Origin: Thermodesulfobacteriota bacterium
GTDB lineage: Bacteria; Desulfobacterota_D; UBA1144; Nemesobacterales; Nemesobacteraceae
Length of the DNA: 64,000 nt
Assembly (NCBI GenBank): GCA_965204665.1
Contig: OZ242002.1
Coordinates: 1,590,336 to 1,654,335, forward strand
Direction of reading: 5' to 3'
In this document: piece after piece, positions 3,604 through 54,432 of the stretch
Layout of the letters: each line of letters begins with the position of its first letter
How positions within the stretch are numbered: position 1 is the stretch's first letter
Translations under genes and position numbers: made by a program
The notes under the pieces: generated by a model
Database searches by the model: none
Seen by the model: the letters and a program-made list of their open reading frames with translations, nothing else
Told to the model about the DNA's origin: nothing

Positions 3604-4911
3604 TCAGTCTGTAAATTCATATAGGGCCGGTGTCTCACGGATTGCTTTTGCTGTGGCGTCATCCTGCACATCAAATAAATTGTCTGTTCCTATAGTGATC
3701 GTGCGACCCGTCCCTGTCACCGTAGACCCTTTCGGAAAACCTCTGAACTCAATTATATCTTTCTGCGATGCGTTGAAGTCCGTAATAGTATCCTTGGGGC
3801 TTCTGGTCACGTGTCTGATTAGAAAGGTGTCGGCACCCGCACCGCCTGTAAGAGTATCAGCACCGTACTGTCCATCGAGCAGATCATTTCCGGCTTTTCC
3901 GTCAATCGTATCATTTCCATATACCCCGATGAGATTATTTCCCAGGGCATCTCCTCTGATAGTATCGTTGCCGTGTCCAGCATAAATGTTCTCGATACCT
4001 TCAAATGTAATCACTCCCCAACCATGAGCATTGCCGTCATAAGTTCCCGTGGAAAGATCAATGGTTATAGCTGTCGACACATTTCCCATGATGGGTAATT
4101 TACCTTGCTTCATTCTCGGCACTACACTACCTACACCGACAATTCCACCTAGGACCAGAAAATCGGCAAAACCATTATTACTAAGAGCAGTCCCTGTCGG
4201 GGCGCCGCCGTTAAAGCTGTCATTGCCTGGTTCAGTGATGTAAAAAACATCCATCCCGGCTCCGCCGTTGAGCGTATCGTTGCCTTCGTCGCCATAGAGT
4301 GCGTCGTTTCCCGTACCGCCGTTGATCGTATCATCGCCGGCTGCTCCCCGAATGTAATCAGTTCCGTCTCCGCCGTGGATGGTGTTGGCGCCGGCGCTGG
4401 CCCAGATTGTATCATCTCCGTCTCCACCGTAGATGATGTCGTCGGTAGTTCCCGAGAGGTTGCCGTCAAGATGAGCATCAACGTGGTCATCTCCGTCTTC
4501 GCCGTATATCGTATCCGTGCCGGCGCCGCCGACTATCTTGTCGTTTCCGGCACCGGCGTAGACAGTATCATCGCCGGCTACGGCCTTAATTATGTTTCTG
4601 TACTGATTTCCGCATATGACATCGTCATCCGCAGTCCCCGTGATATCATTGGAGACACCGGTCAGCGCATTTATACCGTTGCTCACGTCGCATCTGGGGT
4701 CGCCGAAGGATTTTCCCGGATCTCCCTGCAGTCCCGTCGCTCCCGGATCGCCTTTATCTCCCTTATCTCCTTTTGCCCCGTCTTTACCTGCCGGACCTGC
4801 ATCTCCCGGATCTCCTTTCGGACCTTGTGGACCCATATCTCCTTCACAGGCAATAAAGAAAACCGCTCCGCCGAACAGAAACAACAAAACTAAGAAATTA
4901 CGTAACTTCAT
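3604..4911 (-). CDS. Lipoprotein with collagen triple-helix repeat and RTX/hemolysin-type Ca-binding repeats (copy 1)
   Basis: Signal peptide ending FFIAC, 15 Gly-X-Y triplets, many GGxGxD nonapeptides, C-terminal ALYEFTD; AAGGAGG RBS. Confidence 0.9.
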   Translation of the reverse strand: MKLRNFLVLLFLFGGAVFFIACEGDMGPQGPKGDPGDAGPAGKDGAKGDKGDKGDPGATGLQGDPGKSFGDPRCDVSNGINALTGVSNDITGTADDDVICGNQYRNIIKAVAGDDTVYAGAGNDKIVGGAGTDTIYGEDGDDHVDAHLDGNLSGTTDDIIYGGDGDDTIWASAGANTIHGGDGTDYIRGAAGDDTINGGTGNDALYGDEGNDTLNGGAGMDVFYITEPGNDSFNGGAPTGTALSNNGFADFLVLGGIVGVGSVVPRMKQGKLPIMGNVSTAITIDLSTGTYDGNAHGWGVITFEGIENIYAGHGNDTIRGDALGNNLIGVYGNDTIDGKAGNDLLDGQYGADTLTGGAGADTFLIRHVTRSPKDTITDFNASQKDIIEFRGFPKGSTVTGTGRTITIGTDNLFDVQDDATAKAIRETPALYEFTD

Positions 4912-4939
4912 GACAAAACCTCCTTAAGCAGATGTTTTG

Positions 4940-4966
4940 ATTCTACCCCCCCCCAAATGAAGTCAA
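4940..4966 (-). promoter_or_regulatory. Sigma70-like promoter with G9 tract in spacer (copy 1)
   Basis: TTGACT-TCATTT-G9-TAGAAT on minus strand, 15 bp spacer; same layout at the two paralogs. Confidence 0.75.
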
Positions 4967-5213
4967 GCACTCTTTTTTGAAGAGGCAGTTGAGATGTATA
5001 GATTCTTGGAAGAAAGGCTTTCTTTATAGTAGAGGTGAGTCCAAAACGGAGTTTCTCTTCTGTGGATAATAGATTCTATCCCTTCTCAAAATCCTTGACC
5101 GAAGGCTTCTTTTGGTGAGAATTGCCGATGACACATCCATTAAACCGAGCTTCACCTGTTAAAAACACGGATTAGTCAACCCGGTATTATAGTTATAGGC
5201 GGCGAATTAAACC

Positions 5214-5912
5214 TTACAAGGCATGTTGATTTTCTTTGTCCTCGGAAATCTGCCCGTCTTTTATCTTTATTATTCTTTTTGTGCGCAAGGCTATGTCGTC
5301 TTCGTGGGTTATCATGACGATAGTCTTTCCCCGATCATTCAGGTCTGCGAATATCTTCATTATTTCGTAACTGGTTGCGGTGTCTAGATTACCCGTCGGT
5401 TCATCTGCGAGTATTATGGTTGGGTCATTCACTACGGATCTTGCTATTGCGACTCTTTGCTGTTGTCCGCCTGAGAGTTGGCTTGGCATGTGGTCGGTTC
5501 TATCGTCTAATCCCACTAATGTAAGAGCTTGTAAAGCCAGTTTTTTTCTCTCTGACGATGCTATTCCGCAGTATACAAGAGGAAGTTCCACGTTTTCAAT
5601 CGCTGTTGTCCTTGCAAGCAGATTAAAACTCTGAAACACAAACCCTATTTTTGTGCTTCGTATCTCCGCTTTCTGATCGTTTTTGAGACTTCTTACGTCA
5701 ATCCCGTCAAGCAGGTACTTCCCTTGGCTCTGCACATCAAGACATCCCAAGATATTCATAAGTGTACTTTTCCCTGAGCCTGAAGATCCCATTACAGCCA
5801 CAAACTCCCCCCTTCGGATATCAAGGTTTATGCCGCGAAGCGCCTCGACATCCACCTTTCCGTTTGAGTAGGTTTTTCTGATTCCGCAGAGATTTATTAC
5901 CACAGGATTCAT
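5214..5912 (-). CDS. ABC transporter ATP-binding protein (MacB/LolD-like, ATPase only)
   Basis: Walker [18 protein letters not shown] signature, [10 protein letters not shown]. Confidence 0.92.
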
Positions 5913-53014: not shown

Positions 53015-53028
53015 CGCCCATTAAACTT
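53015..53028 (+). repeat. Dispersed repeat A core
   Basis: cgcccattaaactt exact; the preceding 22-mer (52991-53012) matches the reverse complement of 3335-3356 at 19/22. Confidence 0.7.
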
Positions 53029-53063
53029 CAACTCGGTCGGATACGCGGGTCGGGCATCTGTCC

Positions 53064-53088
53064 TTGACTTAGTTAGGGGGGGTAGAAT
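53064..53088 (+). promoter_or_regulatory. Sigma70-like promoter with G7 tract in spacer (copy 3)
   Basis: TTGACT-TAGTTA-G7-TAGAAT, 13 bp spacer. Confidence 0.7.
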
Positions 53089-53130
53089 CAAAGTCATGAA
53101 AGATCCTACATTGTCGAAGGAGGTTGTATT

Positions 53131-54432
53131 ATGAAGTCACGTAATTTCTTAGTGTTGTTGTTTCTGTTCGGCGGAGCGGTTTTCTTTGCTGCCTGTGAAG
53201 GAGAGATGGGTCCGCAAGGTCAGAAAGGAGACCCGGGAGTGGCCGGACCGGCAGGTCCGCAAGGTCCGAAGGGGGATCCGGGAGTGGGAGATAAAGGGGA
53301 TAAAGGAGATCCGGGAAAGTCCTTCGGCGACCCCAGATGCGACGTGAGCAACGGTATAAATGCGCTGCCCGGTGTCTCCAATGATATCACGGGGACTGAT
53401 GACGACGATGTCATATGCGGAAATCAGTACAAAAACACGATTAATGCCGGAGACGGCGATGATACTGTCTACGCCGGTGCCGGAAACGACAAGATAGTCG
53501 GCGGCGCCGGCACGGATACGATACATGGTGAAGACGGAGATGACCACATTGATGCTCATTTTGACGGCGACCTCTCGGGAACTACCGACGACGTCATCCA
53601 TGGCGGAGACGGAGATGATACAATCTGGGCCACCGACGGCGCCAACACCATCCACGGCGGAGACGGCGTCGATTACATCCGGGGAGCAGTCGGCGATGAT
53701 ACCATCAACGGCGATGCGGGGCAGGACGCACTTCACGGTGATGGCGGTAATGACACGCTCAACGGTGGAGACGGGGCAGATATATTCTGGCTCCTCAACA
53801 GCGGTACCGACACCTATAACGGCGGCGCCCCGACAGGGACTGCTCTCAGTAATGGTAATGGTTGTCGAGCTGCCGATTCTATAATTTTCGGCGGAGTCGG
53901 TTCTTCAGGAGCTACAATCTCGGGCTTGAAGAAGGGTCTTATCACTTTCACAATAACTTCGGAAGCTGCAACCATCGACCTTGCCACGGGGTCTCTTGAC
54001 CGCAGTGCCCGGGGAGGAGGGTCGATTACATTTACAGGTATCGAGAACGTTTACGGCGGATATGGAGCTGATACTATCAACGGAGACAACCTGGGAAATT
54101 GTTTAGACGGGATAAACGGAAATGATACTATTAACGGAAAAGGCGGAAACGACTTCATTGAAGGAGGTGCCGGTACCGATAATCTTACAGGCGGCGCCGG
54201 TGCCGACACCTTTGTAATGAGGCACTCGAACAGAAGCACCAAGGATACTGTTACGGACTTCAACGCATCGCAGAAGGATATAATCCGGTTCCGGGGTTTT
54301 CCGAAAGGGTCTACGTTGACGGGGTCGGGTCGCACTATCAGGATAGGGACAGACGATTTATTTGACGTGCAGGATGACGCCACGGCAAATACAATCCGTA
54401 CTACGCCGGCCCTATATGAATTTACAGACTGA
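53131..54432 (+). CDS. Collagen-RTX lipoprotein (copy 3)
   Basis: FFAAC lipobox-like site, Gly-X-Y stalk with one interruption, GGxGxD repeats, ALYEFTD end; AAGGAGG RBS. Confidence 0.9.
   Translation: MKSRNFLVLLFLFGGAVFFAACEGEMGPQGQKGDPGVAGPAGPQGPKGDPGVGDKGDKGDPGKSFGDPRCDVSNGINALPGVSNDITGTDDDDVICGNQYKNTINAGDGDDTVYAGAGNDKIVGGAGTDTIHGEDGDDHIDAHFDGDLSGTTDDVIHGGDGDDTIWATDGANTIHGGDGVDYIRGAVGDDTINGDAGQDALHGDGGNDTLNGGDGADIFWLLNSGTDTYNGGAPTGTALSNGNGCRAADSIIFGGVGSSGATISGLKKGLITFTITSEAATIDLATGSLDRSARGGGSITFTGIENVYGGYGADTINGDNLGNCLDGINGNDTINGKGGNDFIEGGAGTDNLTGGAGADTFVMRHSNRSTKDTVTDFNASQKDIIRFRGFPKGSTLTGSGRTIRIGTDDLFDVQDDATANTIRTTPALYEFTD

Follow-up and report, generated by a model that had tools for sequence, protein, structure and literature searches.

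Large families of switchable surface lipoproteins are found mainly in host-restricted pathogens (Mycoplasma, Treponema, Neisseria and Borrelia); in the Vlp family of Mycoplasma hyorhinis, homopolymers in the promoters reportedly give combinatorial on/off expression. Collagen-like surface proteins include the streptococcal Scl proteins, which have a C-terminal LPXTG anchor, a long stalk and a trimerising head. Bucl3 and Bucl8 of Burkholderia are predicted lipoproteins with a collagen-like region (PMC4565658). A poly-G run between the -35 and -10 hexamers, for which a spacer of 17 nucleotides (nt) is optimal, has been described for tp0126 of Treponema pallidum and porA of Neisseria meningitidis, and the poly-G lengths differ within T. 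pallidum isolates (PMC7864442). Here we describe a gene family met in a 64,000-nt stretch of DNA from an uncultured Thermodesulfobacteriota bacterium (the window, meaning that whole stretch; assembly GCA_965204665.1, contig OZ242002.1, positions 1,590,336 to 1,654,335). Judged by sequence, two of the window loci are intact genes and the third is broken; all belong to a family of about 55 genes for lipoproteins with a collagen-like stalk and an RTX head, and we consider it fairly probable that its members are self-contained genes for lipid-anchored display proteins, probably switchable gene by gene.

The gene family and the predicted fold of its proteins

A sequence-only reading of the window had described three copies of one architecture. 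Two of them stand as intact genes: copy A (3604..4911, minus strand) is an open frame of 435 residues, and copy B (53131..54432, plus strand) is an open frame of 433 residues with the architecture of copy A and 72.5% identity to it over 440 aligned columns. The third, copy C (27760..28837, plus strand), starts at 27760 with the family signal peptide and stalk and has its 12 triplets and Cys module intact, and its coding is read across three frames. Alignment to its closest intact paralogue (C1:673250-674299, 83% DNA identity; C1 is the contig of the window's genome used for coordinates) shows that one base is missing near 28216 and another at 28585, both outside long homopolymers. The two deletions and the three frames indicate a broken copy, and copy C is thus, as far as its sequence tells, a pseudogene that retains its promoter. 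The 3' flanks are conserved as well: that of copy A (3530..3603, minus strand) is kept among paralogues and has a GAAGTTGTTTC...GAACAACT hairpin past the stop, and that of copy B (54433..54500, plus strand) carries the same kind of hairpin.

The suspicion that these copies belong to a larger family proved well founded. With copy A as query, its own genome (1,983,701 bases in two contigs) gives 124 matched stretches, and a phmmer search over the stop-to-stop open reading frames (ORFs) of the genome gives 67 ORF matches, with a similarity among paralogues (E down to 1e-236) far above chance. Counting as intact those with the signal motif, at least 340 residues and a Y/W/H/R-x-F end, there are 50 intact members of 349-530 residues (median 450), which sum to 67,512 bp, or 3.4% of the genome. 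The family genes are scattered over both strands, a median of 30 kb apart. One additional copy is truncated by the ends of contig C1, and two more have either a deviating C-terminal end or a deviating signal peptide; the broken copies are copy C, C1:292542-293473, C1:748967-750372, C1:1072522-1073199 and C1:1694854-1695270. Of the 67 matches, three are RTX proteins outside the family, whose signal peptides differ.

The anatomy of the protein is best followed along copy A. A signal peptide (residues 1-21) leads to the lipobox Cys22, and a signal peptide with the lipobox MKLRNFLVLLFLFGGAVFF(I/A)AC is present in copies A, B and C, as the sequence-only reading had it; the first 22 residues are almost invariant throughout the family, with the consensus MKLRNFLVLLFLLGGAVFFAAC, and of the 50 intact members 37 have EGD after the lipobox Cys and 10 have EGE. 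The Gly-X-Y stalk occupies residues 24-68. Its count of 15 triplets in copy A had been given correctly, as had the 12 of copy C; for copy B the earlier count of 9+4 gives way to 10+3 triplets with one interruption. The stalk is followed by a Cys module (residues 69-110) whose C74 and C100 are the Cys pair seen before; together with C22 they are invariant in an alignment of 67 family proteins from the window's genome, a congener (G016) and a few other contigs. RTX block I (residues about 92-224), a variable insert (225-305, with its hypervariable part at 236-282) and RTX block II (311-364) make up the head, and a serralysin-like C-terminal cap (365-435) closes the protein with the expected LYEFxD end (LYEFTD in A and B, LYEFVD in C).

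The RTX-like repeats noted by eye are recognised by Pfam HemolysinCabind (PF00353) with 133.9 bits in copy A (E 1.5e-39) and 109.8 bits in copy B (E 5.3e-32), against a cut-off of 23, and copy A has 10 strict and 16 loose nonapeptides (GGxGxDxUx). An AlphaFold2 monomer model of copy A, made with the family alignment as input, reaches a mean predicted local distance difference test score (pLDDT) of 85.4 and a predicted template-modelling score of 0.79; the pLDDT lies above 90 over most of residues 70-435. The model has a strand every 9 residues over 79-234 and a second roll over 283-366; the insert bears a helix at 260-269 and a dip in confidence at 241-250, and the cap bears a helix at 418-426. 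Foldseek ranks the RTX blocks of adenylate cyclase toxin (7rah_E, E 1e-7) highest, along with type I lipases and serralysins, and a sequence search against solved structures gives the same picture. The low TM-scores (0.2-0.3) reflect a different arrangement of the blocks. The head of the family is thus predicted, from this model, to be a parallel beta-roll in which two RTX blocks flank the hypervariable insert. Within that insert, residues 247-265 of copy A are fairly hydrophobic (GFADFLVLGGIVGVGSVVP, mean Kyte-Doolittle value 1.7 over 19 residues), a segment absent from copy B.

No named family emerged for this combination, as the sequence-only reading had supposed. Pfam and NCBIfam give generic RTX and collagen matches only, the NCBIfam matches being partial and far under cut-off (serralysin, RTX hemolysins, the SMc04171 family and SclB); a protein atlas search returns generic RTX clusters only, with scores of 0.83-0.84; and Pfam, NCBIfam and structure searches find no catalytic, toxin or further domain in the family proteins. 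Full-text literature searches, judged by titles and the openings of abstracts and covering few subscription journals, gave no description of a lipobox combined with collagen and RTX regions, and for a poly-G spacer combined with a lipoprotein they returned unrelated work only.

The family is narrowly distributed. The first 110 residues of copy A match 12 of 41 relatives, all in the window's genus; in a phylum set of 120 genomes 18 match, among them 15 of the 35 further members of the genus and, outside it, 2 of 84 genomes with weak matches to the collagen part only. Large expansions occur only in the window's genome (61 matched stretches) and in G016 (65). In a quick maximum-likelihood tree of 67 family proteins, one clade holds 27 proteins of the window's genome, 1 of G016 and 1 other, and a second holds 31 of G016 and 7 others, each with a support of 100 in the Shimodaira-Hasegawa-like approximate likelihood ratio test, which indicates lineage-specific expansion or concerted evolution. 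Beyond the genus, a pattern scan finds a lipobox directly before Gly-X-Y triplets in Bacteroidota, Myxococcota, Nitrospiraceae, Zixibacteria and Gemmatimonadota. A contig of a Telluribacter metagenome-assembled genome (L093, 401-2294), for example, has a tandem of three lipoprotein genes, about 190 to 215 residues each, whose products have the lipobox Cys, EGD or EGE and about 14 Gly-X-Y triplets; they share a C-terminal domain that is not RTX and ends in YYNLAD. The recurrence of the lipobox and Gly-X-Y segment in other phyla, with another head in the Telluribacter genes, shows that the lipid-anchored collagen-like stalk is a reusable module.

Promoter G-runs and diversification of the copies

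Each family gene has its own sigma-70-type promoter and a strong ribosome-binding site. In 53 of 55 upstream regions the layout is TTGACT, six bases, a G-run and then TAGAAT or TAAAAT, the G-run being G9 in 45, G10 in 5 and G7 in 3; a simple-sequence tract thus ends the -35/-10 spacer, a position at which its length would set expression. In the window, the promoters of copy A (4940..4966, minus strand; G9 at 4946-4954) and copy C (27651..27677, plus strand; G9 at 27663-27671) have TTGACT, a 15-nt spacer ending in the G-run and TAGAAT, and that of copy B (53064..53088, plus strand) has the same hexamers around a 13-nt spacer ending in G7 (53076-53082). A promoter scanner that requires a 16-18-nt spacer did not call the family promoters of the window. 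Over the whole genome this layout occurs at 61 sites, whose spacers measure 13 nt (3 sites), 14 nt (4), 15 nt (48) and 16 nt (6).

The congener G016 has a G-run of G12-16 in 20 of 20 sampled copies, and its spacers are 18-21 nt long in 40 of 47 loci, the other 7 giving no match. Congeners with one to six related genes (G001, G004, G005 and G017) have ordinary promoters with no G-run. The modal spacers, 2 nt short of 17 in the window's genome and 2 nt long in G016, fit a mostly-off repertoire, or else miscalled homopolymers. By analogy, the layout matches a slipped-strand on/off switch as for tp0126 and porA. Across the genome there are 154 G/C runs of at least 7, with a peak at 9 (87 runs) and 10 (35), and runs of A and T decay steeply with length. 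At least 61 of the 154 are of the promoter type and others lie elsewhere in the genome; further G/C runs of the window are found at 18347-18354, 27506-27512, 44927-44935, 52741-52751 and 59482-59491.

Judged by its paralogues, the family is of the kind that defines phase-variable lipoprotein families, with 50 members, a conserved signal and a variable mature part. Mean pairwise identity among the 50 intact members is 0.65 over residues 1-140, 0.34 over 141-330 and 0.47 over 331-435. In a subfamily of 23 members that includes copies A and B, residues 236-282 reach an entropy of 1.89 bits, compared with 0.24 for the signal peptide and 0.26 for the Cys module, so that the insert between the two RTX blocks, already described as variable, is hypervariable. 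The pooled ratio of nonsynonymous to synonymous substitutions (dN/dS; Nei-Gojobori, the same 23 paralogues) is 1.22 at residues 231-300 versus 0.33-0.61 elsewhere, and the insert appears to be under diversifying selection.

The synonymous term itself (dS) falls to 0.14-0.17 over the signal peptide and over residues 69-150 and lies at 0.35-0.78 elsewhere. Identical tracts of at least 40 nt are shared by 424 gene pairs, and in 311 of these the tract begins in the first 330 nt. One tract of 170 nt joins two paralogues whose middle parts are 20% and C-terminal parts 27% identical, another of 300 nt joins two whose C-terminal parts are 47% identical, and a tract of 701 nt is common to copy B and the paralogue C1:781455-782801. 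The low dS of the 5' part and the identical tracts amid divergent remainders indicate that the 5' part is homogenised by gene conversion and that the genes are mosaic. Except for the broken third copy, the earlier observations on the window were thus largely right and their interpretation incomplete rather than wrong; what had been overlooked is that copy C is a pseudogene, the poly-G promoters, the hypervariability of the insert and the recombination between copies.

Probable export, proposed display and the alternatives

All 50 intact members satisfy a lipobox rule of the PROSITE type, which asks for a positively charged N-region, a hydrophobic core and a lipobox with its Cys at position 15-35. 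Profile searches of the genome find the lipoprotein enzymes and carrier Lgt (122.6 bits, cut-off 118.9), LspA (113.3, 73.95), Lnt (253, 132.9) and LolA (88.2, 23.6); a genome-wide search at cut-off finds no PrtD/HlyB-type ATP-binding cassette (ABC) transporter (TIGR01842, best 209 bits versus 510) and no HlyD adaptor (TIGR01843, best 26.7 bits versus 208.65). A type I secretion substrate has no signal peptide and a dedicated ABC transporter with an HlyD adaptor, and the family shows neither mark. With no type I system and with Lgt, LspA, Lnt and LolA present, the Sec/lipoprotein route alone is supported, and it is the most likely export route on these sequence grounds; we infer that the proteins are displayed on the outer face of the cell.

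We propose that a family protein would be exported by Sec, lipidated on Cys22 and transferred to the outer membrane, where the stalk, possibly as a collagen-type trimer, would keep the head off the membrane; that the head is loaded with calcium is suggested by its RTX repeats only. Each cell would then display a random subset of about 50 head variants, in a repertoire renewed by recombination between copies and by diversifying selection on the insert, and the likely role would be that of a variable adhesin or coat that alters what hosts, grazers or phages see. The most elaborate form of this proposal, a combinatorial library of about 50 switching genes whose calcium-stiffened beta-roll heads stand on lipid-anchored trimeric stalks and give every cell a different coat for mimicry of animal matrix or evasion of phages and grazers, strikes us as rather unlikely.

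A number of observations, taken up here together with the explanations that would accommodate them, weigh against this proposal of switchable display. The stalk is short, with just 10-18 Gly-X-Y triplets in the 50 intact members (median 14), and Pfam Collagen, which scores 30.7 bits in copy A, falls under its cut-off of 27.2 in copy B (21.1 bits). The segment could therefore be a flexible, charged, monomeric tether that forms no collagen triple helix; no trimerisation domain was recognised in the proteins, and the monomer model of copy A has a pLDDT below 50 at residues 15-66, as is also expected for a collagen segment modelled as a monomer. Against a mere tether stand the strict Gly periodicity in 50 of 50 members and a composition (X rich in Asp, Pro and Lys; Y rich in Lys, Ala and Pro) that puts Pro and charged residues at positions typical of bacterial collagens. 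Peptide work has shown that Lys/Arg-Gly-Asp/Glu pairs stabilise collagen triple helices, and these occur 3.3 times per longest run versus 1.3 in shuffles that preserve X and Y positions, a 2.5-fold excess; the recurrence of the lipobox and Gly-X-Y module in other phyla argues in the same direction. The monomeric tether is nevertheless a real possibility, if not the one we favour. A tandem-repeat finder gives no strong repeats in the stalk-coding DNA, so that stalk length is probably not set by a slippage tract.

The promoters raise a second difficulty. A 17-nt spacer occurs at none of the 61 sites in the window's genome and at none of 40 in G016, which means either that the copies are almost all off in the consensus or that the assignment of the hexamers or the assembled homopolymer lengths are wrong, and 48 of the 61 sites have the identical 15-nt spacer, which could reflect limits of homopolymer calling. 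The public data, seven runs from three studies that are all in the form of contigs and include none of RNA, did not directly show length variation within the population: contigs of three runs carry a 'GG' insertion in the copy B G-run, where paralogues can cross-map and contigs break, and those of four runs over 46800-56600 have identical flanks in two runs and break at copy B, the variants inside the gene being inseparable from cross-mapping paralogues. Such uniformity would suit a G-run that is a fixed, non-switching promoter element of paralogues expressed constitutively or under conventional regulation and binding different ligands. A fixed element sits poorly, however, with the change of length from locus to locus (G7, G9 and G10 here, G12-16 in G016), with the strong over-representation of G/C runs of 9-10 (122 of the 154 runs of at least 7) and with the lack of a run in low-copy relatives; tracts this long are, moreover, known to slip (PMC7864442). 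We regard the fixed element as improbable and the switch as the better account of the G-run.

Exposure of the head is the third point. A search for Slam (PF04575), a surface-lipoprotein transporter, gave no match in the genome, and none in the controls either, which makes it uninformative. The dN/dS of 1.22 also pools non-independent pairs over an insert that is hard to align. Lipoproteins of diderm bacteria mostly face the periplasm, and the family could do so as well, in the inner leaflet of the outer membrane or in the inner membrane, as calcium-binding structural or buffering proteins that are never exposed. However, exposed proteins typically show what is found here, an insert whose dN/dS exceeds 1, some 50 diversified copies and promoters of the switch type, and the acidic residues past the Cys (CEGD in 37 of 50) presumably resemble the surface-export signals of Bacteroidota lipoproteins. 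Periplasm-facing proteins are to us a doubtful explanation, and display at the surface remains the preferred one.

Directly upstream of copy A, at 5214-8280 on the minus strand, lie genes for a TolC-like protein, a MacA-like adaptor and a MacB-type ABC ATPase. They are single-copy and adjoin one family member only, and beside them there is no FtsX permease gene, the two of the genome being at C1:108357 and C1:557532; a link of copy A to these neighbours was rejected on these grounds, and the adjacency is treated as chance. That the family proteins are classical type I substrates released to the medium, as their RTX repeats, their C-terminal likeness to serralysins and type I lipases and the position of copy A downstream of these genes might suggest, is extremely improbable given an N-terminal lipoprotein signal in every member, a genome with no PrtD/HlyB-type ABC transporter or HlyD adaptor at cut-off, and neighbours that are of the MacAB type.

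Other window features and comparison with known systems

A further G10 run (60479-60488, minus strand) lies within 58828-61157 (minus strand), 18 nt before the stop of an ORF for the N-terminal part of a MAD2-like methyltransferase (60456-61157). The TTG start of an N6_Mtase/Eco57I ORF (58828-60441) follows 38 nt after the run. By manual reading, one extra G in this run would join both ORFs into a methyltransferase of about 780 residues, and we regard the region as a candidate phase-variable DNA methyltransferase that would be off in the assembly. A defence-type island on the minus strand (9674-19071) comprises AIPR (9674-11770), DUF4420 (12123-13193), Z1 (13117-15843) and HATPase_c_3 (15825-17324) genes, followed by a C-5 cytosine methylase that is split over two ORFs (17321-18115 and 18286-19071). 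A chromosomal gene at 35460-36221 (plus strand) encodes a TraT-like lipoprotein (Pfam TraT, E 6e-71). Finally, the genome contains 28 copies of a short dispersed element (60-95 bp), those of the window at 52500-52595, 27400-27450 and 3050-3100; 13 of the 28 (46%) are no more than 1.5 kb away from a family gene, versus 13% of random points. Since its position and orientation vary with respect to the genes, the element is not counted in the gene unit.

About 55 copies taking up 3.4% of the 2-Mb genome of an uncultured Thermodesulfobacteriota bacterium, with about 65 in a sister species, is an expansion suggesting that a host, grazers or phages put the cell surface under strong and shifting pressure. 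An RTX beta-roll, normally bound for type I secretion, appears here to be delivered by the lipoprotein route on a collagen-like stalk, and the family would offer a simple scaffold from nature, in which a lipid anchor carries a stalk and a calcium-folded head with one hypervariable loop. If the proposal is right, it extends a contingency-locus system of the pathogen type beyond known pathogens, in a domain combination previously undescribed.

The head shares its nonapeptides and predicted beta-roll with the RTX region of adenylate cyclase toxin, serralysins, family I.3 lipases and AlgE R-modules, and with type I RTX proteins also the 'IDL..G...IEN' start of the block and the C-terminal cap. Those type I proteins lack an N-terminal signal peptide and need an ABC transporter, adaptor and TolC, whereas the family described here has a lipobox signal in a genome where no type I system was found. 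The layout of anchor, collagen-like stalk and head is that of Scl1/Scl2 and Bucl3/Bucl8; the present proteins have short stalks, an N-terminal lipid anchor and an RTX head, the last of which is not described for Scl or Bucl.

In the promoter, the nearest likeness is to T. pallidum tp0126 and tprE/G/J/L and N. meningitidis porA, which have a poly-G run in the promoter (PMC7864442). These encode beta-barrel porins, as single genes or a small family, whereas here the run precedes lipoprotein genes at about 50 loci and the switching is a prediction from promoter sequence. The Vlp system of M. hyorhinis likewise consists of several lipoprotein genes whose signal peptide is conserved, each of them having a promoter with a homopolymer between -35 and -10. 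Vlp uses poly-A, in a few genes of one cluster that encode heads of simple tandem repeats in a wall-less pathogen; the family described here uses poly-G, in about 55 dispersed chromosomal genes of an uncultured diderm, each apparently presenting a folded beta-roll head on a collagen-like stalk.

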